IMG/VR virus record: IMGVR_UViG_3300036832_000434
Location: 7,750 to 71,749 of that record
Length of the DNA: 64,000 nt
Origin: a virus
Direction: 5' to 3' (one strand)
Shown: positions 12,709 through 38,761 of the stretch, one piece after another
Layout: each line of letters begins with the position of its first letter
Position numbering within the stretch: the stretch's first letter is position 1
Position numbers and translations under genes: made by a program
The notes under the pieces: model-generated
Told to the model about the DNA's origin: nothing
What the model saw: the letters and a program-made list of their open reading frames with translations, nothing else
Database searches by the model: none

Positions 12709-13079
12709 TACAGTGTCCTCGGGAGAATTGGTTTCAGGAGCATATGGTCGATCCGCTTGTGCGGATTGGCCGCGGGATGGTCCGGCGCGCTCGCTTTTGC
12801 TGCGGCCTTGGTCGCGATCAGCCAATCGTATTCGGCTTGATCGATCATGGTCCCGCCGGTCCAAATGCGTTCGACGCCTTCGGCTTGGGCGGGATCGGGA
12901 TGGGGATCGAAAGAAAACTCGTCGATTATCGCGCACCATCCGGCGGCGGTTTCGACGATCTGAGCAGGAACGGCCCATCCGCCCCTGACAAGGCGGAGGC
13001 GGAACGTGCCGGGCGAGGGCGGCCAAACGAGCCGGGCTTGTGCCGGATCATGCCGGCGGTTCGAAGCCATTACGCACAC
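12708..13079 (-). CDS. Hypothetical phage protein
   Basis: PGTFRLRLVRGGWAVPA...I..AEY.WL. Confidence 0.6.
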   Translation of the reverse strand: MCVMASNRRHDPAQARLVWPPSPGTFRLRLVRGGWAVPAQIVETAAGWCAIIDEFSFDPHPDPAQAEGVERIWTGGTMIDQAEYDWLIATKAAAKASAPDHPAANPHKRIDHMLLKPILPRTL

Positions 13080-13968: not shown

Positions 13969-14328
13969 ATGGACGCGAGCCGAAGATCGTTTGCCAGCCA
14001 CGCCGAAGCCATCGATCTTTGGCCGTCGGTTGTGGTGCTCGCCGATGATCTGACCCTCCCGCTCTCGACCGTCCGTTCCTGGCGTGAGCGCAATTCGATC
14101 CCATCCGCGCATTGGTCCGCCGTCGCCGCCGCCGCCAAGGCTAGGCGGCTACGAGTCACAGCGGATGCGCTCCAGGCGATCGAGGCCGATCGGGACCGGG
14201 AGCGTCGGGCGCGGAGGAACCTTCCTGCGCAAAGTGCGCGCACGGTAGTCCCGCCTAATGAGATTGCGCAAGAGGACAACGGGCGGACTCGTGCGCGAAA
14301 ACAATCAATTACGGAGGCCATGGGGTGA
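13969..14328 (+). CDS. Cro-like HTH regulator
   Basis: IDLWPS...LADDL....TVRSWRERNSIP..HW. Confidence 0.75.
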   Translation: MDASRRSFASHAEAIDLWPSVVVLADDLTLPLSTVRSWRERNSIPSAHWSAVAAAAKARRLRVTADALQAIEADRDRERRARRNLPAQSARTVVPPNEIAQEDNGRTRARKQSITEAMG

Positions 14329-15026
14329 TGCAGACGGACCAAAGCAACGTCACCAATGACGCGGTGCTCGATTATCTCCGGCAGTACCAGCAGCAGCGGC
14401 GTGCCTGTGACGAGGCCAATGGCGTCCTCCGATCCTTGCTCAAGCGGGCGAAAAGCGACGGGATCAATACGAAGGCGATGATCGCGACCGTCACCGCAAG
14501 CAAACTCGATCCCGAGGTCGTGCAACAGGATATGCGCGACCAAATCCGCTATATGGCGCTCCGGAACATGCCGGTGCATCAGGTCGATCTATTCGGCGAA
14601 AACGGCCTCGATCTCCGCGTCACCGAGAAAAGCCGCGAGGAAGATCAGTCGTGGGCCGCTGACGACGCCGGCTATCATGCCGGGCGGCACGGCGCGCGGG
14701 TCGAAGATTGCCCCTACCAAGCCGGTTCCTCGCTCGCCGATCACTGGTATCGGTCGTGGAAGCGCGGTCAGGAGGCGATCGCGCGCGAACTCGGCCCCGA
14801 CGTGAAGCCGGCGACTGCGAGCCGAAAGCGTCCGAATCGGGAACAACAGACTCTCGACACCGAATCGGGCGAATCGGGCGAGGACGATGGCGTCGAGACG
14901 GTGGGCGCTACGCCGCCGCTGACTGAGCGGGCGACGAAATCCCGTGGCCGGCCGCCTAAGCTCGCGGCCAACGGCGCGCGGGTTAACCGGCCCCGTGCCT
15001 CGCGGGCTTCCGCCGCGGCACACTAG
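14325..15026 (+). CDS. GapR-like (DUF2312) domain fused to RMF-like domain
   Basis: AKSDGINTKAM...KLD N-domain; GYHAG..G....CPY.......W..SW..G. Confidence 0.6.
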   Translation: MMQTDQSNVTNDAVLDYLRQYQQQRRACDEANGVLRSLLKRAKSDGINTKAMIATVTASKLDPEVVQQDMRDQIRYMALRNMPVHQVDLFGENGLDLRVTEKSREEDQSWAADDAGYHAGRHGARVEDCPYQAGSSLADHWYRSWKRGQEAIARELGPDVKPATASRKRPNREQQTLDTESGESGEDDGVETVGATPPLTERATKSRGRPPKLAANGARVNRPRASRASAAAH

Positions 15027-17659: not shown

Positions 17660-18634
17660 ATGACCTCATCCCCGCATATTTCCTGGGCTTTCAGTCAGCG
17701 CAATTTATCGCTCGCTCAGCGGATGGTTCTGATCGCGCTCGCCGATCGGGCGAACGGATCACGCGTCTGCTGGCCATCGTTCAAGCGCATAGCCGCCGAT
17801 TGTGAGATGACGCAGCGGGCGGTCATCGCCGCCGTGAAGCACCTCCGCGAGCGTTCGCTTATCGAATGCGTGACCGATCCGGACGAAAGGGCGGCAATTC
17901 TGGCGCGCGACGGAGCATGGGAAGGAAGCCGATCGAACCTCTATCGCATCCTCCGCCCGCTCGCCGAAACAGAGAAACCCGGCGATCCGGCGCAACCGCC
18001 GATCTATGAACCTAGTTCACCCTCAGAGCCGGAGCCGCCGCCTGACTATGAACCTAGTTCACCCTCATGGGAGCCTGACTATGAACCTAGTTCACCCTTG
18101 ACCGTGAATCAGGTTCACCCCGAGGGTGAACTACGTTCATACGAATCCCCCATAGAATCTCCAAAGGAAGAAGTAAGAGGCTCACTACGTTCGCCTAGCG
18201 TGCGACGAGAACGCGACGAGATCGCAATCTCAGGTCATCGGGCTATCGTCGATGCGTGGAATGCAACCGCGGCGCGCACCGGGCTTGCCCTCGTCAGAAA
18301 ATTGCGACCGGACCGCGCACGCAAATTGTCCGCCCGGCTGAGCGAGCACAGCGTCGATGAGATCATCGCCGGCATCGAGAAGATCGGGGCGAGCGCCTAC
18401 TGCCACGGCGCGGGCGAAAACGGCTGGCGGGCGGATTTCGATTTCCTGCTGCAACCGAAATCCTGCGAGCGTGCGATCAGCGGGTTTTACGACGATCGCC
18501 CGGCGAAGGGCTTCAACCCGGCGAACCTGACCGGTGCCGGCGCCCTCTTGTGGAAAATCGAGCGCGAGAAAGCCGAAAAAGCGGCTCGACAAGGGACCAA
18601 GCAACCCGAGATGATGGAGATCGGACATGGTTGA
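17660..18634 (+). CDS. Phage replication initiator (N-terminal winged HTH)
   Basis: VLIALADRANG...CWPS..RIA..C; internal iterons; GWRADFDFLL C-domain. Confidence 0.85.
   Translation: MTSSPHISWAFSQRNLSLAQRMVLIALADRANGSRVCWPSFKRIAADCEMTQRAVIAAVKHLRERSLIECVTDPDERAAILARDGAWEGSRSNLYRILRPLAETEKPGDPAQPPIYEPSSPSEPEPPPDYEPSSPSWEPDYEPSSPLTVNQVHPEGELRSYESPIESPKEEVRGSLRSPSVRRERDEIAISGHRAIVDAWNATAARTGLALVRKLRPDRARKLSARLSEHSVDEIIAGIEKIGASAYCHGAGENGWRADFDFLLQPKSCERAISGFYDDRPAKGFNPANLTGAGALLWKIEREKAEKAARQGTKQPEMMEIGHG
18004..18139. repeat. Iterons, probable replication origin
   Basis: CTATGAACCTAGTTCACCCT at 18004, 18046, 18079; degenerate TGAA-N5-TTCA copies at 18105 and 18127. Confidence 0.85.
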
Positions 18635-19493
18635 TCTCGTCGATCGCGCCATCGTCGTCGAATGGCTCGCCAAGCTCGCGCTCCGCTGCGCCCCGATCAA
18701 ATCCGGCGCGGAGGATACGGAGCTTCGGATCAGGACGTTCGCCGCGCCGCTCGCCGCAGACCTACCAGCCGGCGCGTTCACCGATGCGAGCCTTGAGGCG
18801 ATCTCGCGCAAATGCGAATTCTTCCCCGGCTACGCGCAGCTACGGAAATTGCTCGACGGCTGGTGGGAGGCCAACAAGGCGTCTCCGCTCATCGCGCTAT
18901 CCGGGGGCATACCGGAGGGGATGCCGGCGGCGGATCGCTCGATGATAATTTTCTGGCGGGAGTATATCTCCGGCGCCAAGCCGCTCCCGACAAACGTCTC
19001 GCTCGATACGTGGCTCAGCATGATCCGCAAGCCGACGCCGGCCGCGTTCGCCTTCCTGTGCAATACATGCACGAAGGCGGCCTCGATCGCCGTCCGCCAC
19101 AATTGGATCAGGGACCGGCGGACCACGCCGACGGCCGATGAGATCGAGGCGGTGCATGATGCCGTGCTCGACGCGAAAGCGGCGATGCACCCGACAGCCG
19201 CGACGATGCCCGTACAGCCGCCCCGCCCCGCCGCCGCGCCTACCCCCCCGGCGCAAGCCTCGCCTCCTGCCACCGACGAACCTCGCCCGAGTCCCGTGCC
19301 TGCCAAGACGCTCAGCCCGGAGCACCTCGCCGCGCATCGCATGGCGGCCGGCATTTCCATCCCGCCGTCGCCGACGCCGGCCCCGGCCAAAGCCGGCTCG
19401 CGCCCGTTCGCCGCCCGCCCGGCAAACGACGCCCATCCGCCGCCGCCGAAACCGGCTCCCGCACCGGCCGGAGGGCCGTTCCCATGGTCCTGA
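18627..19493 (+). CDS. Replication accessory protein (helicase-loader position)
   Basis: Follows initiator; C.FFP..A.L motif; Pro-rich tail. Confidence 0.55.
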   Translation: MVDLVDRAIVVEWLAKLALRCAPIKSGAEDTELRIRTFAAPLAADLPAGAFTDASLEAISRKCEFFPGYAQLRKLLDGWWEANKASPLIALSGGIPEGMPAADRSMIIFWREYISGAKPLPTNVSLDTWLSMIRKPTPAAFAFLCNTCTKAASIAVRHNWIRDRRTTPTADEIEAVHDAVLDAKAAMHPTAATMPVQPPRPAAAPTPPAQASPPATDEPRPSPVPAKTLSPEHLAAHRMAAGISIPPSPTPAPAKAGSRPFAARPANDAHPPPPKPAPAPAGGPFPWS

Positions 19494-22658: not shown

Positions 22659-23160
22659 TTGTGTCCTCGGGATAGGGGCTATCAGGGGGAGCGCACGGCT
22701 CGCCGCCACGCCAGAATTCGACGTAATCCCAGCCGTCGGCGATCAGGTAAAACTCGCTCGGCGAGATGGCTTGCATCCGGTATTGTGGCGTCACGCCAAG
22801 GCCGAAGCGCTTCGGCTGGCCCGGATCGTCGATCCGCCGGGCATAGGACGGTGCGGCGAGAAACGGGCAGACGCTGAGCGCGTATTCCGCGCAATCGAGA
22901 TGTAGCGGCGGATCGATAAAGGCGCCGCGAGGATGGAGGAAACATCGGCTCCCGCCGACAAACCAAAATCCCCGGCTGATCCGTTTGCCGCAGATCGCGC
23001 AGAGCCGCTTGCCAATGCACTCGCGAAACCGGGCGAAGTCATTAACCGGAAATTGCGCCCCGCCGGTTTTGTCACGTACGACGATGAACGGGATCGGATA
23101 GCCGCGTGCGTCCTTTTCGAGCGTCCGCATCCGCGGCGGAATAGGCGCGGAGCGGATCAT
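22648..23160 (-). CDS. Conserved Zn-binding phage protein
   Basis: RGYPIPF, CAICG, FVGG, DPPLH.DCAEYA...CPFL. Confidence 0.7.
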   Translation of the reverse strand: MIRSAPIPPRMRTLEKDARGYPIPFIVVRDKTGGAQFPVNDFARFRECIGKRLCAICGKRISRGFWFVGGSRCFLHPRGAFIDPPLHLDCAEYALSVCPFLAAPSYARRIDDPGQPKRFGLGVTPQYRMQAISPSEFYLIADGWDYVEFWRGGEPCAPPDSPYPEDTNDR

Positions 23161-24143
23161 CGGCGCACCTTGTAATGGCTCCGATTGAGCCACGAGAGCC
23201 GCGTATCCTCGGTCACGCCGACGAGCGTATCGCGGATGAAAGACTGCACCCCGGAGGCATACGTCCGGAGATGCCCGCGGCGGATATGGGGGACTGGCGA
23301 GGCGTGCGTCCCGCCCAAGCTCTCGCCCGCCCTCGGCCGCCCGCGGAGCATCATCGCGGTCACATAGGGCGCTGAATTAACCCGGTCATAGGGCGGGATC
23401 GGGGGCTTGCCGGACTTCGCTCGCGCCCGTTGCAGCTTATCAGCCACGCGGACCGTCTCACGCTCGATCCCGTTGGTCGAGAGCATTATCAGGCAGGTCA
23501 TCAGCGGATCGAGGACATTTCCCGCCGCCGCGTTCTCCGGCGCTTCGCCGTTGTTTATCGCCTCGGCGCCCGGCATGAAGCGCCAGATCGAGGGCGCGCA
23601 ACGCGCCGAGTAACTATCCGGCTTTTCCGGCTCCGGTAGATAGAGGATGCGATCGCCGATCGTCAGCGTCCCTTGGCCGGCAAATTGCGCCGGCTCTAGC
23701 TCGACGACTTCGCAGTCCCCGTTCGGTCGATCCGGCTCACAGGGATTGATGAGATAGACCGCGGCGTTGCGCTCATCCCAGGTATGGTAGAGCAGCCACG
23801 GGTCGCGAAACGGCTGATTGAGGACACCGGCCGCGTAAAGCGGCCCGCCGCGGTGTCCGCCGTCTTTAATCAGCGCGTTGGGAAGCTCGCCGAAATCGAT
23901 CAGCCGCCCGGCTTTGACCGCTTCGAACGCCATATCGCCGATCAATTCCACCTCGCGCTGACGCGGCGCGAATTGCATCGCTTCTTCCGGCACTATGCCG
24001 GTTAGCTGCGGCCCGCCGATCAAGTAGCTCTCGATGATCTTGCGGACTTGCCCGATCGTCGGCCGCCAGGGCGCCATGGTCGATAGATCGCACTCCATAA
24101 ACGCGCCGTCGCCAGCCTCATTGGGCCTGACATTAGGGGCCAT
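23157..24143 (-). CDS. Hypothetical phage protein
   Basis: 328 aa; C-terminal HASP.PH.RRGH.R motif. Confidence 0.7.
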   Translation of the reverse strand: MAPNVRPNEAGDGAFMECDLSTMAPWRPTIGQVRKIIESYLIGGPQLTGIVPEEAMQFAPRQREVELIGDMAFEAVKAGRLIDFGELPNALIKDGGHRGGPLYAAGVLNQPFRDPWLLYHTWDERNAAVYLINPCEPDRPNGDCEVVELEPAQFAGQGTLTIGDRILYLPEPEKPDSYSARCAPSIWRFMPGAEAINNGEAPENAAAGNVLDPLMTCLIMLSTNGIERETVRVADKLQRARAKSGKPPIPPYDRVNSAPYVTAMMLRGRPRAGESLGGTHASPVPHIRRGHLRTYASGVQSFIRDTLVGVTEDTRLSWLNRSHYKVRR

Positions 24144-27182: not shown

Positions 27183-28154
27183 ATGGCTCACGAGATCACT
27201 ATCCGCGAAAACGGCAAGGCCGAGATGGCATTCGCGGAAGGGACCAAATTCCCTTGGCACTTCAAGGATACCAAGCCGGCGATGGTGCCGCACGGTTCCC
27301 CGGTTTCCGATTGGGTCGGACTCGCCGGCATGGATTGGGACGTCTGCCAATCCCCCGTCATCTATGAGGCCGGCGGCGTCAGCCGCGAATTCGCTGAGCG
27401 CTTCGTACTCCACCGCTCCGACACCTTCGCCCCGCTTGGCGTCGTCTCCGACGATTATTGCATCCTTCATCCGCGTGAGTGCATCGAGTTCTTCTCCGAT
27501 CTCGTCGCCTCCGTCGGCCTGAAATTGGATACCGCGGGCACATTGTTCGGCGGCCGGCGGTTTTGGGCGCTCGCTTCCGTCGGCGAGGCGTGCATGATCG
27601 ACAACCGCGATCCGATCAAAGGCTACCTCCTGCTCACCTCATCGGCGGATGGCTCGCGGGCAACGGAAGCGCGTTTCGTCTCGATCCGCGTCGTCTGCGC
27701 GAACACGCTCAAGATGAGCGAGAAGGAGTCGGCCGGTCAGATCAAAATCACGCACCGGAGCGAATGGGATTCGAGCAACGTCAAAAAGCGCCTCGGCATC
27801 GCGCCGGCCACTTTCGAGACATTCATGGCGAACATGCGCAAGCTCGCCGACAAGCGCCTGACCGACGATCAGGCGGCGGCCCAAATCAAGATCCTGCTCG
27901 GGAAAGAGGAAAAGGATGCGGCGAAAGAGGGCCGCGTTTTCGCCAAGGTGATGGACCTTTTTCGCGGGCTTGCGACCGGCTCCGATCTCCCCGGCGTAGA
28001 AGGCACCGCTTACGGCTTGCTCAATGCCGTGACTGAGGCCATCGACCACCGTTCCAAGGCGATGTCGGATAGCCATCGCTTGCAAAACTCGCTCATGGGC
28101 GCGGGCGACAAGCTCAAGGTTCGGGCGCGCGATCAGCTTCTCGCGCTCGTCTGA
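27183..28154 (+). CDS. DUF932-family phage/plasmid protein
   Basis: AGMDW.V, RSDT..PLGVVS..Y, TAG.L.GG...WALA, YLLL..S.DGS, RVVC.NTL, GTAYGL.NAVTE..DH. Confidence 0.9.
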   Translation: MAHEITIRENGKAEMAFAEGTKFPWHFKDTKPAMVPHGSPVSDWVGLAGMDWDVCQSPVIYEAGGVSREFAERFVLHRSDTFAPLGVVSDDYCILHPRECIEFFSDLVASVGLKLDTAGTLFGGRRFWALASVGEACMIDNRDPIKGYLLLTSSADGSRATEARFVSIRVVCANTLKMSEKESAGQIKITHRSEWDSSNVKKRLGIAPATFETFMANMRKLADKRLTDDQAAAQIKILLGKEEKDAAKEGRVFAKVMDLFRGLATGSDLPGVEGTAYGLLNAVTEAIDHRSKAMSDSHRLQNSLMGAGDKLKVRARDQLLALV

Positions 28155-28177
28155 TCCGCGGTTTCGAACGTGCGAAA

Positions 28178-28205
28178 AGAAAGGGCGGCTCCGGCCGCCT
28201 TTTCT
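28178..28205 (+). terminator. Intrinsic terminator, possibly bidirectional
   Basis: AGAAAGGGCGGC-TCCG-GCCGCCTTTTCT. Confidence 0.75.
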
Positions 28206-28255
28206 GCGTCGATCGCGCTTCCGAAGCGGCCGGCTTGTCGTTTATACCGGCGGGC

Positions 28256-28516
28256 ATGGACGCTGACGAATTACGCGCAATTCTCGATCGGATGGGCTGG
28301 AGCCAGGGCGATCTGGCGCGCAACGCCCAACGCGATCTGCGGCGGACGCGCAAAATGGCGCAGGGTCAGGAGCCGATCGACGAGCCGCTCGCCGACTGGC
28401 TCCGCCGGCTAGAGCCGCTGATCTCTGATCCGCCGCTACGGCCGGGCAATCATCGCGGACGGGAGGACATGCCACATGGCAGAGAGCCGCCGCCGAGGAC
28501 GCAAGCCAGGGGCTAA
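28256..28516 (+). CDS. Small XRE-like HTH protein
   Basis: ELRAIL.RMGWSQ.DLAR.......RKM..G..PI. Confidence 0.7.
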   Translation: MDADELRAILDRMGWSQGDLARNAQRDLRRTRKMAQGQEPIDEPLADWLRRLEPLISDPPLRPGNHRGREDMPHGREPPPRTQARG

Positions 28517-29075
28517 GACATCGGGGGGCCTCTCGATCGCCTATGTGCCGCTCCGCGATCTCGTCCCCTATCAGAACAACTCGCGCACGCATACCGGCGC
28601 ACAGATCGAGCAGATCAAAGCCTCGATGCTCCGATTCGGATGGACGACGCCGATCGCCATCGCCGATCGTGGCGTCATCGCCGGCCATGCAAGGCTGACC
28701 GCCGCCCTCGCGCTCGCGGCGGAAGGCAAGCCGATCCCGCGCCATCCCGATCCGGCGCTCGGTCCCGTGGTCGATCTCTCGGCGCTGACGCCAGCGGAAC
28801 GCCGGGCCTACGTGATCGCCGATAACAAGATCGCCACCGCGGCGGGATGGGATGACGGACTTCTCCGCTTCGAAATGGAGGAACTCCGGGACGGCGGTTT
28901 CGATCTCATGCTGACCGGCTTCTCCGACGTCGAAATAGGGAACCTATTCGCTGATCCGACGCCGCCAGGGGACTTCCGCGGCTACGATGAGACGATCGAG
29001 ATCGAGCATACCTGTCCGCGCTGCGGCTTCGCATGGAGTGGCAACGCGACTAGCCGGCCGCTCGCCGCAGAATGA
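28476..29075 (+). CDS. ParB/Srx-like protein with C-terminal Zn ribbon
   Basis: LVPY.NNSRTH...QI.QI..S..RFGW..PI, IAGHARL.AA, YVIADNK, CPRCG. Confidence 0.88.
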   Translation: MAESRRRGRKPGAKTSGGLSIAYVPLRDLVPYQNNSRTHTGAQIEQIKASMLRFGWTTPIAIADRGVIAGHARLTAALALAAEGKPIPRHPDPALGPVVDLSALTPAERRAYVIADNKIATAAGWDDGLLRFEMEELRDGGFDLMLTGFSDVEIGNLFADPTPPGDFRGYDETIEIEHTCPRCGFAWSGNATSRPLAAE

Positions 29076-30427
29076 GGCTATGGATTGAGCGGAGCACCGG
29101 GCTTCCAACAGGATGGAGATTGCCCCGGCGTCGCTTTCCTGGTTTCGCGCACGAATTCTTCGATTTCACCGATCGGCCACATCCGACGGTCGATACACTT
29201 CCGCGCACTCGCATCGTGATCGAGCATGACGGCCTCCCTATGAAACCACGCGCTGACAAGCCGCCGTATCGCATCCCGTCGATGGCGGAGATCGCCGCGA
29301 TCGAGCCGAACGGGCTGATCGCCGCATCGACATTCTCGGGGTGCGGCGGCTCGTCGCTCGGCTATCGTATGGCTGGCTACCGGGTCGCCTACGCCAATGA
29401 ATTCGTCGCCGCGGCGCGTGATAGCTACCGGGCAAATGCGGCGCCAGGGACGATCCTAGACGGCCGCGACATCCGGTCCGTCAGCGCGGCCGACATCCTC
29501 CGCCGGATCGGCCTCGATGTCGGAGAGCTAGACCTTCTCGACGGCTCGCCGCCGTGCTCGTCATTTTCGACCGCTGGAAAGCGTCACGAAGGCTGGGGCA
29601 AGCAATCCGCATACTCCGACACCGCTCAGCGGACCGATGATCTGTTTTTCGAATTCGTCCGCATCGTCCGCGATGCGCAGCCGCGGGCCTTCGTTGCGGA
29701 GAACGTCTCGGGCTTGGTCAAGGGCACCGGCAAAGGTTACTTCCTGGAAGTACTCTCTAGCATGAAGGCCGCCGGCTACCGCGTCGAGGCGCGGCTGCTC
29801 GACGCGCAATGGCTCGGCGTGCCCCAGGCGCGCGAACGGCTGATCTTTGTTGGCGTCAGGAATGACCTTGGCCTCGCGCCGGCCCATCCGAAGCCGCTTC
29901 CGTACCGGTACAGCGTCCGCGATGCGCTCCCCTGGATCAATCGGCAGGGTGACAATGCCGGCTTCGGCGGGGGAACTCTCCGCTTCGCTGGCGGGCCATC
30001 GCCGACGATCGGCTCGTCGCCGCAGACCGGAAATGGTCGTTTCCCGCCGTCACTCGTCGAGGCCGAGGCGGACATAAGCCGGTACGCGATCGGCCGGGAA
30101 TGGGATAAGCTCCTGCCGGGCGAGGCGACATTCTACGGCGCGAGCCTCGCCAAGCCGGCGCTCGATCGGCCGTCGCCGACGATCACGCAGAGAGGCGGGG
30201 ACAATACCGCCGCGTCAGTCTGTCACCCGACGGAAAAGCGGAAATTCTCGATCGCCGAACTCCGGCGGATTTGCGGCTTCCCCGACGATTTCATCCTGAC
30301 CGGGACGTATGCGCAGCAGTGGGAGCGCCTCGGCCGTGCCGTGCCGCCCCCAATGATGCGCGCGATCGCCGAAACGATCCGCGATCGCGTGCTGATCCCG
30401 GCGCGGAGCCGGGCCGCCGCCGCGTGA
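29072..30427 (+). CDS. DNA (cytosine-5) methyltransferase-family enzyme, motif-X Asn replaced by Arg
   Basis: Motif I FSGCGG, IV GSPPC, VI ENV, VIII Q.R.R, X LGRAVPP; alternative start 29240. Confidence 0.92.
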   Translation: MRLWIERSTGLPTGWRLPRRRFPGFAHEFFDFTDRPHPTVDTLPRTRIVIEHDGLPMKPRADKPPYRIPSMAEIAAIEPNGLIAASTFSGCGGSSLGYRMAGYRVAYANEFVAAARDSYRANAAPGTILDGRDIRSVSAADILRRIGLDVGELDLLDGSPPCSSFSTAGKRHEGWGKQSAYSDTAQRTDDLFFEFVRIVRDAQPRAFVAENVSGLVKGTGKGYFLEVLSSMKAAGYRVEARLLDAQWLGVPQARERLIFVGVRNDLGLAPAHPKPLPYRYSVRDALPWINRQGDNAGFGGGTLRFAGGPSPTIGSSPQTGNGRFPPSLVEAEADISRYAIGREWDKLLPGEATFYGASLAKPALDRPSPTITQRGGDNTAASVCHPTEKRKFSIAELRRICGFPDDFILTGTYAQQWERLGRAVPPPMMRAIAETIRDRVLIPARSRAAAA

Positions 30428-30493
30428 TCCGGCTCGTCGCTTGGCTCGTTATGCTCGGCTTTGCCCTATTCTTCCGATGGTGGCTCCGCGGAC

Positions 30494-30748
30494 CTAGACC
30501 GGATCGTCGGCTCCGCCCGCGCCGCGGCTAGTCGCCAAAGCCGCGGCGGTCTGAGCGTCACTCATCACAAGGCCATGCTCGTCGTAGCACGCCAAGCGCC
30601 CCACCTCCCCACAGGTCGGGCACTCGGGGCAGACGCAATCATCGATCGGGCGCGAGCAGACATCGCATGGCCCCTCGCCGCCGCAAGCGTCCTCGATCAT
30701 CCGATTGCTGACGCCGGGGGGCAACGATGAGCCGAAAATGCCGCGCAT
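30494..30748 (-). CDS. Small Cys-rich protein
   Basis: LPPGV...CDVC...C.CPECPTCG. Confidence 0.55.
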   Translation of the reverse strand: MRGIFGSSLPPGVSNRMIEDACGGEGPCDVCSRPIDDCVCPECPTCGEVGRLACYDEHGLVMSDAQTAAALATSRGAGGADDPV

Positions 30749-31662
30749 CAGAGCGCCGCGCCGTAGCGCATTTTGCCGTCGGTCCCCTTCCACTTGCTCA
30801 TAACGAAGCCGACGGCCTCGGCCGCCTTATAGACGCGGAACATCGTCGCGGAGCATTGCGCCCAGGCTAGCTCGGAACATCCCTCGGCCTCGGAAACGCC
30901 GTCCTTGCGGAGCATCATACGAAAGAGCGCGAGCTTTTTCCCGGTCAACCCGGCCGCGACGATCTTCGCCTCGATCGCTTCGTCAGCCGCCTTCGCTACC
31001 GCCTTTTTGGCCTTCGGCGTCTTGGCGATCACCTCGGCCGCCATCCGCGCGACGGTATCGGCAACCGCATCCGGTGCCATCAGCATCGCCTCTACCCTGA
31101 CGGTCTCCGGAGCGGCGGCGGGCGCGACGTCCTCGCCGAATAGCGCCGCGAGTTTGCAGCCGCGTACCGTCACCTTGCCGACGCCATCGCCGGCAACCGC
31201 ATAGCCCAAGCCGATCTCCGGATGCGCGCCGACGTAGCCTTGCGCAAACTTGCGTGCGCCGGCCAACGTCTTGAAGGTGCGAGACTTGCTAAAACCATCG
31301 ACGGCCGAATACCGGACGGCGATCTCGACGGCGGGAGCCTTGGCCGGCTCCGCTGCGGCTTTCTTCGCCATATCGTTCGTCTCCATCTTGCGGGCGATAC
31401 ATTCGGCGGCAACCGCGGCGGACCTCTCCGCGATCTCGGCCATCGCCTCTACCTCGTTGAAATACGCCTCGCTCGCCGCGTCAGCCGCCGGCTCGTCATC
31501 CGCCGCGGGCGCGACGACATCCTCGATCGTCAGCCCCTTCGCTTGAAGCACCTTGAACGTCCGGCTTTCGCCGATCTTGCGGCTTTCGAACCGCACGGCG
31601 GGCTTCGGCGCGTGCGTGTTGTAGATCGAGAGCAATTCGGCGTTGGAGAGTTGGTCAAACAC
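30748..31662 (-). CDS. Hypothetical protein with DUF3489-like C-terminal wHTH
   Basis: K.A....MM.R..G.S..E....L.W; GTG start after leader hairpin. Confidence 0.65.
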   Translation of the reverse strand: MFDQLSNAELLSIYNTHAPKPAVRFESRKIGESRTFKVLQAKGLTIEDVVAPAADDEPAADAASEAYFNEVEAMAEIAERSAAVAAECIARKMETNDMAKKAAAEPAKAPAVEIAVRYSAVDGFSKSRTFKTLAGARKFAQGYVGAHPEIGLGYAVAGDGVGKVTVRGCKLAALFGEDVAPAAAPETVRVEAMLMAPDAVADTVARMAAEVIAKTPKAKKAVAKAADEAIEAKIVAAGLTGKKLALFRMMLRKDGVSEAEGCSELAWAQCSATMFRVYKAAEAVGFVMSKWKGTDGKMRYGAAL

Positions 31663-31687
31663 GGGATCGGCCCCTTTGTCATGTCGC

Positions 31688-31742
31688 GGGCGGAATGCCC
31701 TGCGCTCCGATCGTTATGAACTGCCAATGCGAAATTCGCCAG
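31688..31742 (-). promoter_or_regulatory. Repeated promoter + leader hairpin, copy 4
   Basis: GCTGGC 41 nt before AGGGCATTCCGCCC; 25 nt to GTG 31662. Confidence 0.7.
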
Positions 31743-31768
31743 CATTATGCACGGGAGGGCCGATCAGC

Positions 31769-32458
31769 ATGTCGCTCGCGAAATTGCCCAAGCCCGACTC
31801 CGCCTTCGATATCCCGCAGGAATGGACATTCGATAGCCTGACCGTCGCGGATAATTTCGAGCGTCACGTCCGCGAGCAACTCCCCTGGTATGGATTGGCA
31901 ACCAACGCGATCGCTCACGTCGCGCGCCATTACATCCCGCAAGGTGGGCTGATCTACGATCTCGGCGCTGCAACCGGCAATATCGGCCGCGCGCTGGAAG
32001 AAACCATCGACGCGCGCCGGGCCGAACTGATCTCGATCGAGGCATCGGAGGAAATGGCCCAGCGCTACACCGGGCCGCAGAGAGAAAACCTCGCGATCGA
32101 TAACGTCGTCGGCTTCGCCTATCGCCATTTCGATCTCGCCGTCGCGTTCCTAACAATCATGTTCGTCCCGATTACCGAACGCCCCTTGCTGATCGAGGCG
32201 CTCCGCGACAAATGCCGGCCGGGCGGAGCGATCATCATTTTCGACAAAACCGAGGCGATCGGCGGCTACGCCGGAACCGTGCTCTGGCGCCTCGCCCTCG
32301 CCGGCAAGCTCGCCTCCGGCGTCAGCGCCGAGGATATCGTCGCCAAGGAACTCTCGCTCGGCGGCGTGCAACGGCCGATCCGCCCCGAACTGCTCGGCGA
32401 CGACGCGATCGAGTTTTTCCGCTTCGGCGAATTCGCCGGCTGGCTCATCGAGGGCTGA
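31769..32458 (+). CDS. CmoA-like class I SAM-dependent enzyme (carboxy-SAM synthase family)
   Basis: WTFD..VA..F..HV....PWY, YDLGAATG, T.MF....R..L, PGGA...DK, K...G.S..DI..K...L..V; GGAGG RBS. Confidence 0.8.
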   Translation: MSLAKLPKPDSAFDIPQEWTFDSLTVADNFERHVREQLPWYGLATNAIAHVARHYIPQGGLIYDLGAATGNIGRALEETIDARRAELISIEASEEMAQRYTGPQRENLAIDNVVGFAYRHFDLAVAFLTIMFVPITERPLLIEALRDKCRPGGAIIIFDKTEAIGGYAGTVLWRLALAGKLASGVSAEDIVAKELSLGGVQRPIRPELLGDDAIEFFRFGEFAGWLIEG

Positions 32459-32494
32459 TTTTTCCGACGATTTTGCGACAAACAGGGCGGGGGC

Positions 32495-33007
32495 ATGGGG
32501 ATAAATAGCGTAAAAAAGAAACGTGGCCGTCCGCGTAAGCTCGCCGTCGTCGAGACGCGCCCCTCCGCCGGCCGCCCGCCATTCGTGCCGACACAAAAGC
32601 AGCGCGATATGGTCATCGGTCTGACCGGCCTATTGGTCCCTGTCGAAGTCATCGCGCGCAAGGTGATGAATGACGGCGAGGGCATGGACCCTGAGACGCT
32701 ACGCAAGTACTTCTCCCGCGAGTTGGAGATCGGGCGCGAGGACACGATCGCCGGCCTCAAGGGGATCATGCTCGCGCACGCGCAGAGAGGCTCGATCCGT
32801 GCCGCGCAATTCCTCATCGAGAAGCTCGGCGGTGCTGAATTCGCGCCACGGCTCCGCGTTGGCGGGATCGAGGACGCGCCACCGATCAAGGTCAGCGCCG
32901 AGGCAAGGATCACCGTCTATATCCCCGACAACGGGCGCGACAAACCGCCGCCAGCCGAGGCCACGCCGGAACCGGAGCCGGCGGACGATCCCGACGACGG
33001 CGAATGA
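32495..33007 (+). CDS. Terminase small subunit
   Basis: GRP...PT, TLRKYF..EL..G; directly upstream of TerL. Confidence 0.75.
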   Translation: MGINSVKKKRGRPRKLAVVETRPSAGRPPFVPTQKQRDMVIGLTGLLVPVEVIARKVMNDGEGMDPETLRKYFSRELEIGREDTIAGLKGIMLAHAQRGSIRAAQFLIEKLGGAEFAPRLRVGGIEDAPPIKVSAEARITVYIPDNGRDKPPPAEATPEPEPADDPDDGE

Positions 33008-34380
33008 TCGACATCCGGCCGCACGCCGGACCGCAGGAGGCATTCCTTTCCAGCGCCGCGGATATCGTCATTTTCGGCGGTGCAGCCGGCGGCGGCAAAA
33101 CCTGGGGCCTCCTGTTGGAGCCGCTCCGCCATGTGCCAAGCAACCCGGAATTCGACGCGGTTATTTTCCGGCGCAACACGACGCAGATCAAAAACCCCGG
33201 CGGTCTCTACGATCAGGCGATCCGCCTCTATCCCGCGCTCGGCGGCTACCCCGTATCCAAGCCGCTCGGCTTTCGCTGGCGCTCCGGCGGCGGGCGCGTC
33301 ACCCTCGCCCATATCGAGCATGAAAACTCCAAGCTCGATTGGCACGGCGCGCAAATCCCGCTCATCATGTTCGATGAACTGACCACGTTCACCGAGACGC
33401 AATTCTGGTACCTCTTTTCGCGCAACCGCTCGATGTCCGGCGTCTCCGGCTATATTCGAGCGTCATGCAACGCTGACGCCGATTCCTGGGTCGCGAACCT
33501 GATCTCATGGTGGATCGATCAGCGCACCGGATTCCCGATCGAGGCACGCTCCGGCGTGCTCCGCTGGTTTATCCGCCTCGATGTAGAATTGATTTGGGCG
33601 AACTCCCGCGCCGAACTCGTCGAGAAGTATCCAGGGAGCGAACCGAAGTCGCTGACGTTCATCGGCGCCAAGCTCGACGACAACCCGACGCTCGTCGCCT
33701 CCGATCCGACATACCGCGCCTCGCTCATGGCGATGAACCGGGTCGAGCGCGCGCGACTGCTCGATGGCAATTGGCTGATCCGGCCTTCCGCCGGCCTCTA
33801 CTTTCAGCGCGGATGGTGCGAATTCATCGACACCCCGCCGGCTCAAATGCGTGTCTGCCGTGGCTGGGACATGGCGGCGACACCCTACACCGGGACCAAC
33901 GATCCGGATTGGACCAGCGGGACCAAGATCGGCCGCACGCCAGACGGGCGCTATGTGATCCTCGATAACGTCCGCCTCCGCGCCGGGCCGCGCGACGTCG
34001 CCCGGCTGATCCGCAACACCGCGTCAGCCGACGGCAAATCGGTCCGCATCGACATCCCGCAGGAGCCGGCCGCGGCAGGCAAGATGCTCGTCGCCTCGCT
34101 CTCGCGGCTACTCGACGGCTACCCCGTCACGTTCTCCCCGGAAACCGGCGACAAGCTCACCCGCTTCTCCCCGTTCTCCGCCCAGGCCGAGGCCGGCAAC
34201 GTGATGATCCTCCGCGGCGCCTGGAATGAGCCGTATCTGACGAACCTAGAGGGCTTCCCGCCGCCGACGACGGGCACCGGCCACGACGACGACGCCGATT
34301 CGACGAGCCGCGCGTACAACAACCTCATGGTCGCGAGGGCACCCCTGATGATCTCCGACGAATTGCTCGAATTGATCTGA
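33004..34380 (+). CDS. Terminase large subunit
   Basis: Walker A GGAAGGGKT, Walker B FDELT, nuclease GWD.A and HDD.AD. Confidence 0.95.
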   Translation: MIDIRPHAGPQEAFLSSAADIVIFGGAAGGGKTWGLLLEPLRHVPSNPEFDAVIFRRNTTQIKNPGGLYDQAIRLYPALGGYPVSKPLGFRWRSGGGRVTLAHIEHENSKLDWHGAQIPLIMFDELTTFTETQFWYLFSRNRSMSGVSGYIRASCNADADSWVANLISWWIDQRTGFPIEARSGVLRWFIRLDVELIWANSRAELVEKYPGSEPKSLTFIGAKLDDNPTLVASDPTYRASLMAMNRVERARLLDGNWLIRPSAGLYFQRGWCEFIDTPPAQMRVCRGWDMAATPYTGTNDPDWTSGTKIGRTPDGRYVILDNVRLRAGPRDVARLIRNTASADGKSVRIDIPQEPAAAGKMLVASLSRLLDGYPVTFSPETGDKLTRFSPFSAQAEAGNVMILRGAWNEPYLTNLEGFPPPTTGTGHDDDADSTSRAYNNLMVARAPLMISDELLELI

Positions 34381-34384
34381 TCGG

Positions 34385-37300
34385 ATGGGGCGCAAAGCCA
34401 AGCGCCGCGCGGGGAAGGCTGCCCGCCGGGAAGCCGCGCGCGCTGCGCGGGGGCCGCGTTCCGAGGTTATGGCCGACGCTGTAGCGTCCCTTCCCCCCGC
34501 GCTACGGATCAGCCAACGGGCCTTGGACGCGGCCTCTACGCAACCGGAACTCTTTGCATCCTCGCCCTGGGAAATCGCCCGCCCGCCGCCCGGCGTGGTG
34601 CCCGATGACGTGTTCGCCGGCATCGCCGCCGACGCCTCCCTCGGCTCGCTCTATTCGTACGGCCAGACCAACGCATTCACCGACGGGATGCAATGGCTCG
34701 GCTATCCCTACCTTTCGGAGCTAGCGCAGCGGCCTGAATACCGCCGCATGGTCGAGCAGACCGCCAAGGAAATGACGCGGCGGTGGATCAAGCTAAACGC
34801 CGCGGGCGATGATCCCGATAAGGATAAAGCGCGCCGGATCAAGATCATCGAGGGCCAGCTAAAGCGCCATCGCGTGCAAGCGAAATTCCGCCGGCTCGCC
34901 GAACTCGATGGCTTTTTCGGCCGCGGTCATCTCTACATCGACACCGGGCACACCGCGGAGCCGGACGAACTCGCGATCCCGCTGATCCGCGACGCGCGCA
35001 AGATCGGCAGGCGGGGCTTGAAGCGCCTCAAGATCGTTGAACCGATCTGGACCTATCCATTCGACTACGCGACGACCGATCCGCTCGATCCGGACTTCTA
35101 CCGGCCGCGGCAATGGTTCGTACAGGGCCGCAAGGTGCATCGTAGCCGGCTGCTGACCGTCGTCGGCCGCGAGGTGCCGGACATGCTCAAGCCGGCCTAT
35201 GCGTTCGGCGGTGTGGCGCTGACGCAGATGGCAAAGCCCTACGTCGAGAATTGGCTACGCACCCGGCAATCGGTCGCCGATCTGATCCATTCGTTTTCGG
35301 TCAGCGGGATCAAGACGAGCCTCTTTTCGACGATGAATGAAGTCGGCGATCAGCCGCTACTCAAGCGCGTGCAGTTATTCAACAAGACACGCGACAACCG
35401 CGGCATGTTGGTGATCGACAAAGACGCCGAGGAATTCTTTAACGTCTCGACGCCGCTTGGCACACTCGATCATTTACAGGCGCAGTCGCAAGAGCAGATG
35501 GCCTCGGTCAATGGCATCCCGCTCGTCGTGCTGCTCGGGATCACGCCATCGGGCCTCAATGCGTCATCGGACGGCGAAATCCGGACGTGGTATGCGTGGA
35601 TCGAGGCGATGCAGGAGCATCTATTCGACGACGATTTGCGTGTCGTGCTCGAAATCATCCAGCTTTCCGAATTCGGCGAGATCGATCCCGAGATCACGCA
35701 TACCTGGGAACCGCTCTGGCAACTCGACGAAGCCGGAGCCGCCCAGGTCCGCAAGACGGATGCCGATACCGATATGGAGTACGTCAACGGCGGCGTGCTC
35801 TCGCCGGCCGAGGTGCGTCAGCGCATCGCCGACGCCGAGGACTCGCTATATCCGGGCCTCGATGTCGATGATCTCCCGGAGCCGCCCGGCGGTGGCGGCA
35901 TGGAAGGCGAGGGCGATCCGTTCGGCGGGATGCCTGATCCGGCCAACGCCAATGAGCCGCCGCCGGCTGATCCCGCGCAAGCGAAGGCGCCGATCTCGCC
36001 GCTCCGGATCGCGGGCGATGCCTTCAAGGAAGAAGATGTCGATCGCGACAAGAGCGGGAAATTCACCTCCGGCGGTGGCGGTGGCGGCGGCGCGACCAAG
36101 GTCGAGAACGTCGCCGACTGGAAAAAGGTCGGCCCGCAGCTTGGCGGCAATCCTGGCGGGAAATACCAAAGCCCCGAGGGCGATCATTACTATATCAAGC
36201 AGTCGAAATCGGACGATCACGCCAAAAACGAGGTGCTTGCCGGCAAGCTCTATCAGGCGGCGAAAGCCCCGGTATTCCATTCGCGGCTGGTCGATGTCGG
36301 CGGCGGCAAGCTCGGGACGTCGAGCAAATGGAAGGGCGACGCGACCGATATCAACCCGGCGTCGAAAGCGGAGCGCAAAGAGGCGCAGCAGCATTTCGCC
36401 GTCCATGCGTGGCTGGCGAACCATGACGCCGCCGGAACCGACACGTACAACCAGGGCAAGCTCAATGGCGTCATGCACACAATGGATGTGGGCGGGGCGC
36501 TCAATTACAAAGGACTCGGCGGCCTAAAGGGCAAGACCTTCGACGATGAAGCCGACGAGTGGGAGTTGATGCGCGCGGGTGACGTGGTGAGCCAGAAAGG
36601 CGCCGCGATCTTTGGCGACATGACCGACGCGGAACTGAAAGCGAGCGCGGAGAAAGTCGCCGCCGTTCCTGATGAGACGATCGCGAAGCTCGTCGAAGAA
36701 CACGGCCCCGGCGATGCGGCGGCAAAAGCGGCGCTGACGGAAAAGCTGATCGCGCGCAAGAACAACATCATAAAGAAAGCCGGGATCGAGGCGCCGGCCG
36801 CTCCGGCTCCTGCCGCGCCGGCCGAGACGCCGCCCGCTCCCGCCGAGACGGCCCCTGGCGTCAAGAATCAGGCTTTCGAGGATGCCCATCTCCGCGGTCC
36901 GGACGGCAAATTCCTCCCGAAGCCGGATGACGATTCGAGCGCGGAGCAGGCCGATCTCTACGCCTACGCGACCGAGGAAGGCGAGACGTTCAACAACAAG
37001 ATTTTCAACGTCCAAGACGTGATGCTCGACTCGAAAGACCCAGATGTCATCGCCTACGGGCAAAAGCTACTCGACGGCTTGAACGCACCGGCCACGCCGG
37101 CAGGCACCGAGGCACCCCCGGCGGCGCCGGCCGCTCCGGTCGAGCCAAAGCCCGCCCCGCCTGATCCGCCCTCCTACGCTGGCCCGGCGGCGAAGAAAAT
37201 CGCCGAGATGACGAAGGCGATGCTCGCCGAGGGCAAATCGCCGGAGGAAATCGCCGCCGCGATCAAAGAGTATGCCGCGAGCTTCAAGGGCAACAATACG

Positions 37301-38761
37301 CAGACCTATGCGAAGAACGTCCTCGCGCACCTCGAAAAGAGCCACGGGCTAGCCAAGGGCACGCTCGCCAAGCTCGGCGCTGGCGGGAAGCCGCCGGCCG
37401 CCCCTCCGGCGCCACCGGCCCCCGTATCGCCGCTGACGGTAGCCTCGCCCCCGGCCACGCCGGCTATCCCGGAACCGCCGCTCCCGCAATCGACGGCGAC
37501 GCAGCAGTATATCGATTCGTACGCCAAGGAAGCATTGCACAGCACGGCGGACAAGATCGCGACGCTCTCCAAATACGCGACTGCTCCGACGACAAATCCC
37601 GATGATGCCGCGTTCGCGAATGCGTGGCTCGCCAATCTCATGGCGAAGTCGCAAGCCGCGCCGATGCCACCTCCGCCGACGCCGGCCCCAACGCCAGCGC
37701 CGACACTCGCGCCAACCCCGGCCCCGACACCCGCCCCGGCTCCGCCGCCACCCCCGCCGCTCGCCGGGCCGATGCCGCATCCCGATTCCGGGCCGCAGAA
37801 AACGATCTACGCGCTCGCGACCGGCCCCGGCACCGATGCCGAGAAGGCGGCCAAGATCAAGGCGGAAGCCGCCGGCATGTACCAGGGCGGCTTTGCCAAG
37901 AAATTCGCTGACCAATGGATCACCGCACTCGGCGGCGATCCGGCGGCACCCGCGCCGACGCCGGCCCCGATGCCAGCCCCGCCGAAGGCCACGCCAGCGC
38001 CGAAGCCGGCGGCCAAGGGGGCGCTCGCCACGGCCGCGAAAGGGACCGCCAAGCAGGCGGACGATCATGCCGCGGCGATCCCGGCCTATTGGGTCAATCA
38101 AGGCGTCAAGGCGACGGAACGTGTATCGGCGAAAACCAAGCTCAGGCGCATCCAGAACATTCACGCGCTCGCGGCCGGGGCGAAGCATACGGATACGATC
38201 ACCTCCGCGATCGCCAAGGAAGCCTGCCCAACGGCACTTAGCGGATTCTGGCAAAAGGGAGAGGGGGCGGTAGCGCTCGACGCGGTTAAAAGCTACTCGG
38301 GCGGCGGCTATTCCGACATCAACGCGGCACTCCGCGATCCCGATCATTCATCGACGAGCGCGATCACCAAAGCCAATCTGATCGATGATCTATTCGAAAT
38401 GCCCGAGGCGTCTGTCACGACTGATTTCATCGCCCATCGCGGCGAACAGGTGCCGGAGAAGCAAATCGCGCAGTGGATGAAAGGATTGGAGCAAGGCAAG
38501 CCGGTCCGCTACTCAAAAGACGGCTTCATATCATCGTCGTTTGCCGATCAGCCGGCCGGGATCGGGAAGGGTCATAACGTCCAATTCCAGATCGTTGTGC
38601 GCAAGGGCACGCGCGCCGTCGGGATCGGCGTTCATGGCGTCAGCCAATATGGATCGGCGGAAAACGAGGTTATGCTGCGGCACGGGCAATCCTTCGAAAT
38701 CTATGACATCACGAAGGGCAGCAACGGCAAAACCTATATCAAGATGGCCGTCGCCACTTAG
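34385..38761 (+). CDS. Portal protein (DUF1073-like) fused to kinase-like domain, helical repeats and ADP-ribosyltransferase
   Basis: Portal motifs GYPYL.ELAQ.PEY, VH.SRL, LLG.TP.GLNASS.GE in the first ~500 aa; about 950 extra aa in the same frame. Confidence 0.88.
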   Translation: MGRKAKRRAGKAARREAARAARGPRSEVMADAVASLPPALRISQRALDAASTQPELFASSPWEIARPPPGVVPDDVFAGIAADASLGSLYSYGQTNAFTDGMQWLGYPYLSELAQRPEYRRMVEQTAKEMTRRWIKLNAAGDDPDKDKARRIKIIEGQLKRHRVQAKFRRLAELDGFFGRGHLYIDTGHTAEPDELAIPLIRDARKIGRRGLKRLKIVEPIWTYPFDYATTDPLDPDFYRPRQWFVQGRKVHRSRLLTVVGREVPDMLKPAYAFGGVALTQMAKPYVENWLRTRQSVADLIHSFSVSGIKTSLFSTMNEVGDQPLLKRVQLFNKTRDNRGMLVIDKDAEEFFNVSTPLGTLDHLQAQSQEQMASVNGIPLVVLLGITPSGLNASSDGEIRTWYAWIEAMQEHLFDDDLRVVLEIIQLSEFGEIDPEITHTWEPLWQLDEAGAAQVRKTDADTDMEYVNGGVLSPAEVRQRIADAEDSLYPGLDVDDLPEPPGGGGMEGEGDPFGGMPDPANANEPPPADPAQAKAPISPLRIAGDAFKEEDVDRDKSGKFTSGGGGGGGATKVENVADWKKVGPQLGGNPGGKYQSPEGDHYYIKQSKSDDHAKNEVLAGKLYQAAKAPVFHSRLVDVGGGKLGTSSKWKGDATDINPASKAERKEAQQHFAVHAWLANHDAAGTDTYNQGKLNGVMHTMDVGGALNYKGLGGLKGKTFDDEADEWELMRAGDVVSQKGAAIFGDMTDAELKASAEKVAAVPDETIAKLVEEHGPGDAAAKAALTEKLIARKNNIIKKAGIEAPAAPAPAAPAETPPAPAETAPGVKNQAFEDAHLRGPDGKFLPKPDDDSSAEQADLYAYATEEGETFNNKIFNVQDVMLDSKDPDVIAYGQKLLDGLNAPATPAGTEAPPAAPAAPVEPKPAPPDPPSYAGPAAKKIAEMTKAMLAEGKSPEEIAAAIKEYAASFKGNNTQTYAKNVLAHLEKSHGLAKGTLAKLGAGGKPPAAPPAPPAPVSPLTVASPPATPAIPEPPLPQSTATQQYIDSYAKEALHSTADKIATLSKYATAPTTNPDDAAFANAWLANLMAKSQAAPMPPPPTPAPTPAPTLAPTPAPTPAPAPPPPPPLAGPMPHPDSGPQKTIYALATGPGTDAEKAAKIKAEAAGMYQGGFAKKFADQWITALGGDPAAPAPTPAPMPAPPKATPAPKPAAKGALATAAKGTAKQADDHAAAIPAYWVNQGVKATERVSAKTKLRRIQNIHALAAGAKHTDTITSAIAKEACPTALSGFWQKGEGAVALDAVKSYSGGGYSDINAALRDPDHSSTSAITKANLIDDLFEMPEASVTTDFIAHRGEQVPEKQIAQWMKGLEQGKPVRYSKDGFISSSFADQPAGIGKGHNVQFQIVVRKGTRAVGIGVHGVSQYGSAENEVMLRHGQSFEIYDITKGSNGKTYIKMAVAT

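Follow-up and report, generated by a model that had tools for sequence, protein, structure and literature searches.

A predicted CmoA/CmoX-type DNA cytosine carboxymethylation locus, with no detectable ligase gene, in a complete high-G+C phage genome

Organisation of the locus

The sequence analysed here is a window of 64,000 nucleotides comprising bases 7750-71749 of a complete virus genome of 71,749 bases (IMG/VR record IMGVR_UViG_3300036832_000434), which bears direct terminal repeats of 127 bases each and belongs to a phage with a G+C content of about 64%. The locus at positions 28476-32458 of this window is, as judged from homology to a published two-enzyme system, most probably a phage module of the CmoA/CmoX type for the C5-carboxymethylation of DNA cytosine. 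Its first gene (28476-29075, plus strand) encodes a ParB-like protein of 199 residues whose N-terminal part is a ParB/Srx-type domain and whose C-terminal tail is conserved. The stop codon of this gene (TGA, 29073-29075) overlaps the ATG (29072-29074) of the second as ATGA, consistent with the upstream coupling described in an earlier note on this DNA. The second gene (29072-30427, plus strand) encodes a protein of 451 residues that matches Pfam family PF00145 and Protein Data Bank (PDB) entry 8YF3 and is predicted to be a CmoX-type DNA cytosine C5-carboxymethyltransferase, referred to below as the window CmoX. The codon of Cys162, the catalytic nucleophile of the SPPC motif, lies at 29555-29557 and that of Arg422 in motif X (cgt) at 30335-30337, both on the plus strand; the two residues are equivalent to Cys98 and Arg350 of SpCmoX from Synechococcus phage S-B43. 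The third gene (31769-32458, plus strand) encodes a CmoA-like protein of 229 residues, a predicted synthase of carboxy-S-adenosylmethionine (Cx-SAM). Its frame is open from TTG 31643, and translation is likely to begin at ATG 31769, which has the sequence GGGAGGG (31753-31759) nine bases upstream and stands 1,341 nucleotides past the methyltransferase stop codon on the same strand, in keeping with the 1.3 kb given in the earlier note.

Assignment of the methyltransferase to CmoX

A system of this type was described for phage S-B43 by Yang et al. (Nat Commun, December 2025; PMC12783734). SpCmoA makes Cx-SAM from S-adenosylmethionine (SAM) and prephenate, with a kcat ten-fold above that of Escherichia coli CmoA, and SpCmoX is a DNA cytosine C5-carboxymethyltransferase that yields 5-carboxymethylcytosine (5cxmC) in vitro and also in E. 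coli, unless cmoA has been deleted from the strain. In crystal structure 8YF3 Arg350 touches the carboxylate of Cx-SAM; wild-type SpCmoX takes only Cx-SAM and the R350N mutant takes neither cofactor. Resistance to HhaI was shown for SpCmoX-modified DNA, a third enzyme, SpCmoY, joins glycine to the carboxyl group, and the virion DNA of S-B43 held only the glycyl amide, 5cxmC not being detected. A survey using SPPC and R350 as criteria returned 5,615 CmoX candidates, the contigs of which hold 4,257 CmoA, 2,251 ligase and 1,660 ParBc sequences, and the role of ParBc was left open (PMC12783734). IMG/VR v4 was searched in that work and the present record may already be among the candidates. The suspicion voiced in the earlier note that a natural example had been reported is borne out by the S-B43 system, and so is its view that the chemistry was already known; the novelty it had hoped for is largely gone, as the chemistry of this locus, that of a published two-enzyme system, is no longer new. 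The precedent which that note had invoked, the N374K mutant of M.MpeI, is found in the Discussion of the same paper (PMC12783734).

The C5-methyltransferase motifs, which had been read as intact, were located as FSGCGG (residues 88-93), SPPC (159-162), ENV (210-212) and Q252-x-R254-x-R256, and motifs I, IV, VI and VIII are invariant in an alignment of five phage proteins (A1: the window, Streptomyces phage TurkishDelight, Moraxella phage Mcat8, Pseudomonas phage PaBG and S-B43). The window protein matches Pfam DNA_methylase (PF00145) with an E value of 5.4e-53 and TIGR00675 with one of 7.2e-47. Its top PDB sequence match is 8YF3 (E 9.7e-65), in which HMMER pairs ERLGRAVPP of the window with ERVGRMVPP of SpCmoX; the second is M.HaeIII (E 1.1e-23), with Asn at the motif-X position. 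The cgt codon within LGRAVPP to which attention had been drawn does therefore encode an Arg at the position of SpCmoX R350, and this supports, at the level of sequence, the proposal that a basic residue in motif X directs a carboxymethyl group to cytosine. Identity is 57.6% to gp123 of TurkishDelight and about 40% to SpCmoX. Residues F25, E47, F48, D69, C98 and R350 of SpCmoX correspond to F88, E110, F111, D133, C162 and R422 of the window CmoX, and all six are invariant in A1. GSPPC is present in 159 of 160 related loci, and the N-terminal 56 residues of the window protein also align in four of the eight close loci examined. Every sequence feature by which membership of CmoX was judged was found, namely the C5-methyltransferase motifs, SPPC, the Arg, the cofactor contacts and a gene for a Cx-SAM synthase in the same genome. 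The variable, target-recognition region of the window protein does not align to SpCmoX, and the GC specificity of SpCmoX is for this reason not transferable to it.

Co-occurrence of the motif-X arginine with CmoA

A set of 160 related loci was assembled, 80 from genome_contigs and 80 from viral_contigs, with identities of 46-68% in the best tblastn segment. Motif X was classed using hmmalign, and CmoA-like open reading frames (ORFs) were sought using a hidden Markov model (HMM) derived from alignment A4, with a threshold of E<=1e-4. Motif X carried Arg in 139 loci and Asn in 19 and was truncated in two; all 14 of the Asn loci that were checked by pattern read QWERLGNSVPP. A CmoA-like gene was present in 135/139 Arg loci versus 0/19 Asn loci, and when only loci with 3 kb or more of sequence downstream were compared the counts were 112/113 versus 0/11. 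Three of the four Arg loci in which none was found have less than 1.5 kb of downstream sequence, and the fourth (L155) is a 14,961-base fragment estimated to be 35% complete. The earlier note had made its proposal depend on a basic motif X occurring together with a neighbouring CmoA-like gene; the two do occur together, a motif-X Arg with no such neighbour is not common in these loci, and the co-occurrence indicates that the Arg is more than chance. Position 422 is furthermore the only alignment column in which the majority residue of the Asn type (at least 85%) is present in at most 10% of the Arg-type sequences.

The CmoA-like gene lies on the CmoX strand in all 135 loci, at an offset from the end of CmoX of less than 300 nucleotides in 87, 300-1,000 in 15, 1,000-2,500 in 30 and more than 2,500 in three. 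A single related locus (L151, 7309-8061) has its CmoA-like gene upstream of CmoX, overlapping the ParB position. Among named phages, a CmoA homologue was found in all six Arg-type genomes. It adjoins CmoX in TurkishDelight, Mcat8, PaBG and S-B43; Erwinia phage pEa_SNUABM_28 and Yersinia phage fHe-Yen9-02 have none within 6 kb and one elsewhere (100 and 98 bits). TIGR00740 had no match in any of the four genomes with Asn (Aphanizomenon phage CL131) or Met (Flavobacterium phages tooticki6-1 and FPSV-S2 and Cellulophaga phage phi18:3) at this position. In the jumbo phages pEa_SNUABM_28 (L174, L177/L180) and fHe-Yen9-02 (L175, L178/L179), the Arg-type CmoX homologue is part of an ORF of about 700 residues with a ParB-like gene upstream, and the CmoA homologue is more than 10 kb away and matches TIGR00740 as two pieces within one open frame.

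The 19 Asn-type relatives (L036, L038, L047, L050, L055, L061, L066, L085, L101, L107, L111, L125, L127, L138, L139, L149, L157, L158 and L163) share 46-61% identity with the window CmoX in the best tblastn segment; a CmoA-like gene is absent from all of them, and the same ParB partner is usually retained. They consistently differ from the Arg type at one position only, yet the published R350N mutant is inactive, and natural Asn forms may thus show what else a cofactor switch needs, which is a by-product of the analysis that could guide experiments.

The CmoA-like protein and points against the assignment

The best NCBIfam family of the CmoA-like protein is TIGR00740 (E 9e-13), and it matches phrog_4752 with an E value of 1.6e-43. 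E. coli CmoA (4GEK, E 5.1e-12) is its best PDB sequence match, with 4GEK, 4IWN and 1IM8 at the top of the list; the domains Methyltransf_11, Methyltransf_12 and Methyltransf_25 match it weakly. Identity is 48% to the neighbour of CmoX in Mcat8 and 24% to E. coli CmoA. An AlphaFold2 model calculated from an alignment of 30 sequences had a predicted local distance difference test score (pLDDT) of 92.1 and a predicted template modelling score of 0.88, and the six best Foldseek matches of this model were CmoA structures (4IWN, 4GEK and 1IM8; TM scores of 0.72-0.77). Thirteen conserved positions are common to the window protein and E. coli CmoA (in E. coli numbering F20, F28, Y39, D62, G64, G68, F137, R143, G158, K165, K185, K198 and L202), and 12 of these are also found in SpCmoA. 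The claim of the earlier note that the phage makes Cx-SAM using a CmoA-like enzyme is thus supported by homology of the two proteins to SpCmoA and SpCmoX.

Several observations weigh against the carboxymethylation module. Following calculation of a tree of 160 rows using FastTree (L082 left out and the motif-X column dropped), the Asn label was found to need only two to four changes, and an independent-pairs test on the tree had only one or two usable pairs, such that no significance can be claimed and the co-occurrence represents a handful of events rather than 158 independent trials. CmoX and CmoA do not form one simple operon, as one or two opposite-strand genes lie between them, and their co-expression is therefore only assumed. 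ORFs assigned to no family occur in this genome (for example 11905-13026, 18627-19493 and 23157-24143), and those of 290-370 residues, of which there are several, could hide an enzyme that modifies the product further. The remaining points concern the CmoA-like protein, which is the weakest part of the case. Its TIGR00740 score of 48.4 bits is under the curated cut-off of 193.3 bits, it is the most divergent of the CmoA proteins examined (20% identity to SpCmoA), methyltransferases of the CysG/BelI type follow the CmoA structures by a small margin in the fold search, and it has Glu at the position of E. coli CmoA Arg199, described in a passage of PMC4482062 as the only side chain that touches the carboxylate of the product.

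The validated phage enzyme SpCmoA fails the same two CmoA tests, the curated cut-off and Arg199. It scores 115.6 bits against TIGR00740 and the homologues of PaBG, TurkishDelight and Mcat8 score 130.5, 89.5 and 63.5 bits, so the cut-off excludes known phage members. Glu at the Arg199 position is likewise present in SpCmoA and in 80 of 135 CmoX-linked CmoA homologues (the others having Arg in 32, Ala in 15, Ser in three, Lys in three and a gap in two), which indicates that Arg199 is not required for activity in the phage enzymes. Tight binding of the product is given as the reason for E. coli CmoA's low activity, again in a passage of PMC4482062; that loss of Arg199 relieves product inhibition is speculation, and Glu at this position may be linked to faster product release in the supply of genome-wide modification.

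These properties bear on two alternatives. According to the first, the methyltransferase would be an ordinary SAM-dependent enzyme producing 5-methylcytosine and the CmoA-like protein an unrelated small-molecule or RNA methyltransferase, as the score under the curated cut-off, the weak Methyltransf_11/12/25 matches and the nearly equal CysG/BelI-type fold matches might suggest. This is considered very improbable given that wild-type SpCmoX uses Cx-SAM alone and its R350N mutant neither cofactor (PMC12783734), that the CmoA-like gene accompanies the Arg-type methyltransferase and never the Asn type, and that position 422 is the only column separating the two types. According to the second, the divergent CmoA-like clade would make another SAM analogue, from which CmoX would transfer a different acidic group. 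The low identity to E. coli CmoA, a deficit of about nine residues near the C-terminus and the Arg in 'WRLALA', absent from E. coli CmoA and SpCmoA, speak for such a divergence, and yet the validated SpCmoA shares the Glu, the conserved core positions of CmoA are retained and the acceptor Arg in CmoX is unchanged, making a different transferred group scarcely credible. Carboxymethylation from Cx-SAM remains the preferred reading of the locus.

Ligase search and predicted end product

No match to PF00733 was obtained at E<=1 in a six-frame search of the complete genome, the best tblastn hit of SpCmoY, the PaBG Asn synthase and the TurkishDelight ligase to the genome had an E value of 0.65, and no ligase appeared in the Pfam results for 40 ORF translations. 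A CmoY-type ligase is accordingly not detectable in the complete 71.7-kb genome, and the predicted product is plain 5cxmC. Within the flanks that were fetched, a ligase gene was found in 46 of the 135 Arg-type loci with CmoA and in none of the other 89, so that the ligase-free form is common.

It is conceivable that 5cxmC is only an intermediate, the carboxyl group of which is modified by an unrecognised phage or host enzyme to give a hypermodified base. The glycyl amide was the sole form in S-B43 virion DNA (PMC12783734), about a third of the related loci do encode a ligase (46/135), and the ORFs without a family noted above offer candidates. Set against this are the failure of HMM, tblastn and Pfam searches to reveal a ligase of the Asn-synthase or a related type, the 89 related loci whose fetched flanks likewise show none, and the case of Mcat8, where the gene order is shared and no ligase adjoins; a further modification is on balance judged unlikely, and 5cxmC is retained as the predicted end product. 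Since 5cxmC went undetected in S-B43 virion DNA, ligase-free phages are a natural place in which to seek it as a final base.

The ParB-like protein

The ParB-like protein matches PHROG phrog_620 (E 9.1e-41) and no Pfam family, PF02195 included, even at E<=10. It is 39-54% identical to proteins that carry PF02195 and, taken together with the PHROG match, this makes it a divergent ParBc member by transitive homology. A length of 199 residues leaves no room for the full canonical partition architecture with its helix-turn-helix (HTH) domain and its dimerisation domain at the C-terminus. It is 43% identical to the product of the gene upstream of CmoX in Mcat8, and of the Arg loci with at least 1.5 kb of upstream sequence 92 of 96 have a ParB-like ORF upstream of CmoX, as do 17 of 19 Asn loci. 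Its presence with both types indicates that it goes with the methyltransferase clade and not with the carboxymethyl chemistry.

The most conserved part of the protein is the C-terminal tail (F167 ... C180-P-x-C183-G ... W187-S-G). An alignment of 30 sequences shows no variation at N35, G70, N117, F167, C180, P181 or C183 and hardly any at W187, S188 or G189, and CPxC is present in the ParB-like proteins of 127/129 Arg loci and 13/17 Asn loci. Longer homologues are fusions of ParBc to an N6_N4_Mtase domain, PF01555 being present in 119 and PF00145 in none of the 120 listed; these cover 65-84% of the ParB-like query and leave out the tail. Fusions of this kind from phages and prophages are described in an excerpt of bioRxiv 10.1101/2025.10.10.680097. 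The N-terminal ParB domain is alike in the two (39-54% identity), whereas the window protein is separate, has the additional conserved tail and is partnered by a C5-methyltransferase.

Prediction of a complex between the window CmoX and the ParB-like protein gave scores of 0.81, 0.82 and 0.77 in three runs, the best control scoring 0.00; the runs share at least 49% of contacts and the pLDDT of the partner is at least 74. Of 80 solved complexes 58 reach the mark used, as do 2 of 110 mismatched pairs, counts that hold only roughly here as the prediction used its own 30-row alignments. The confidently predicted interface comprises residues 131, 160-176 and 185-189 of the ParB-like protein and 216-229, 239-247, 257, 272-279 and 365 of CmoX. 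A candidate interface motif in CmoX, 'PKPxPY', was inconsistent (61/129) and was dropped. The model supports binding of the ParB tail to CmoX, but does not show it, and searches of the open-access literature brought up no solved complex of this kind and no paper in which a stand-alone ParB-like protein physically associates with a C5-methyltransferase. In the model the tail (F167 ... CPxCG.WSG) would be added as a strand to the edge of the CmoX Rossmann sheet at approximately 239-244 and 272-279, a non-covalent link that would take the place of the covalent link in the ParBc-N6/N4-methyltransferase fusions. The ParB/Srx domain might then provide nucleotide-gated loading onto or sliding along DNA, with the whole phage genome being modified before packaging. 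It is therefore only tentatively suggested, as a possibility with less than even chances, that C5-methyltransferases of this clade, in both the carboxymethyl and the methyl forms, have the ParB-like protein as a physical subunit, docking through its tail on CmoX. If true, this would give the ParBc partner, left unexplained in PMC12783734, a function, and it is a testable model of how the partner binds the transferase that could likewise guide experiments.

Proposed pathway and relation to known systems

By homology, the CmoA-like enzyme would convert SAM and host prephenate to Cx-SAM, Cys162 of CmoX would attack C6 of cytosine, and Arg422 would hold the carboxylate of the cofactor while the carboxymethyl group is transferred to C5, giving 5cxmC in phage DNA. 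The failure to detect a ligase suggests that modification probably stops there, with neither a glycyl nor another amide being formed. The translationally coupled ParB-like protein would, according to the complex model, probably be a detachable DNA-binding accessory docking via its conserved tail, and the likely benefit of the modification would be shielding of the phage DNA from host restriction.

Like S-B43, the window phage encodes a C5-methyltransferase homologue with SPPC and the Arg that contacts the Cx-SAM carboxylate, together with a CmoA homologue, and a ParBc protein is present in many CmoX contigs of the published survey (PMC12783734). S-B43, a T4-like cyanophage, has CmoY, whereas the window phage (64% G+C, 71.7 kb) has none and is predicted to contain 5cxmC rather than 5-glycylcarboxymethylcytosine. 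The CmoA proteins are only 20% identical, no ParB is annotated within 5 kb in S-B43 whereas a ParB-like gene is coupled to CmoX in the window, and the gene order differs, two opposite-strand ORFs separating CmoX from CmoA in the window. Mcat8, TurkishDelight and PaBG, the closest relatives among cultured phages, resemble the window in having ParB-like, Arg-type CmoX and CmoA genes on one strand and differ from it in having no opposite-strand genes between CmoX and CmoA. The order in Mcat8 (ParB, CmoX, CmoA, small gene, terminase, portal) is that of the window and, as in the window, no ligase gene adjoins; TurkishDelight (ParB, ParB, CmoX, glutamine-amidotransferase ligase, CmoA) and PaBG (ParB, CmoX, CmoA, small gene, Asn synthase) add a ligase of the Asn-synthase type. 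In M.MpeI N374K the exchange of the motif-X Asn for a basic residue also permits use of Cx-SAM (PMC12783734), but there the residue is an engineered Lys and the Cx-SAM that of the host, whereas the window enzyme has a natural Arg and its own predicted cofactor synthase. In the E. coli CmoA/CmoB pathway (tRNA cmo5U34), CmoA is the closest named family and solved fold for the window CmoA-like protein; the pathway differs in that CmoB is absent here, the predicted acceptor is DNA cytosine rather than tRNA ho5U, and Arg199 is replaced by Glu. A recent DNA modification pathway was in this case recoverable by a reader from the sequence alone, and what the locus adds is a complete high-G+C phage genome that carries the system in minimal form, with CmoA and CmoX and no ligase.

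Neighbouring genes and host

Two ORFs lie on the minus strand between CmoX and CmoA. The larger (30748-31662, 304 residues) is probably a real gene, with G+C contents of 0.65, 0.48 and 0.82 at the three codon positions, which is typical for genes of this genome; it has no PHROG match and no significant Pfam match (the best being DUF3489-like at its C-terminus, E 0.032), and weak matches to its C-terminus are present at the equivalent position in loci L115 and L065. The smaller (30494-30793, 99 residues, Cys-rich) is of uncertain status as a gene, having no PHROG or Pfam match and not being chosen by a gene picker based on third-position G+C content (GC3). The insert between CmoX and CmoA measures 0.8 to 5 kb in the nearest relatives. 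A scan of 28000-33100 gave no promoter-like site and five terminator-like sites versus 3.6 expected, which is not informative, and placed no terminator in the interval from CmoX to the opposite-strand genes. A search of the window for tRNA genes had no hits.

Downstream of CmoA on the plus strand lie a putative small terminase gene (32495-33007) and the large terminase gene (33004-34380; Terminase_6N, E 4.4e-24; Terminase_6C, E 1.9e-19). The only three relatives of the large terminase found in genome_contigs belong to metagenome-assembled genomes (MAGs) labelled Rhodobacteraceae (58%), 'proteobacterium' (47%) and Alphaproteobacteria (43%), and a Rhizobiales MAG holds the nearest cellular CmoX; these sequence relationships point to an alphaproteobacterial host and are suggestive only. 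The Pfam search of the 40 ORF translations identified RecT, HTH regulators, terminase, portal, Mu-F, capsid, sheath-like and baseplate proteins and several DUFs.

The gene that follows the large terminase (34385-38761, plus strand) encodes a protein of 1,458 residues in which a portal domain (PF06381, residues 109-463, E 4.9e-83) is joined by a long Ala/Pro-rich linker to a C-terminal domain of the ADP-ribosyltransferase (ART) exoenzyme type (PF03496, residues 1298-1455, E 7.5e-13); the product may be an ART that is tethered to the portal and delivered by the virion. An ORF of 233 residues at 14325-15026 (plus strand) matches ribosome modulation factor (RMF, PF04957) over residues 111-150 with an E value of 4.8e-08, which is unusual in a phage.

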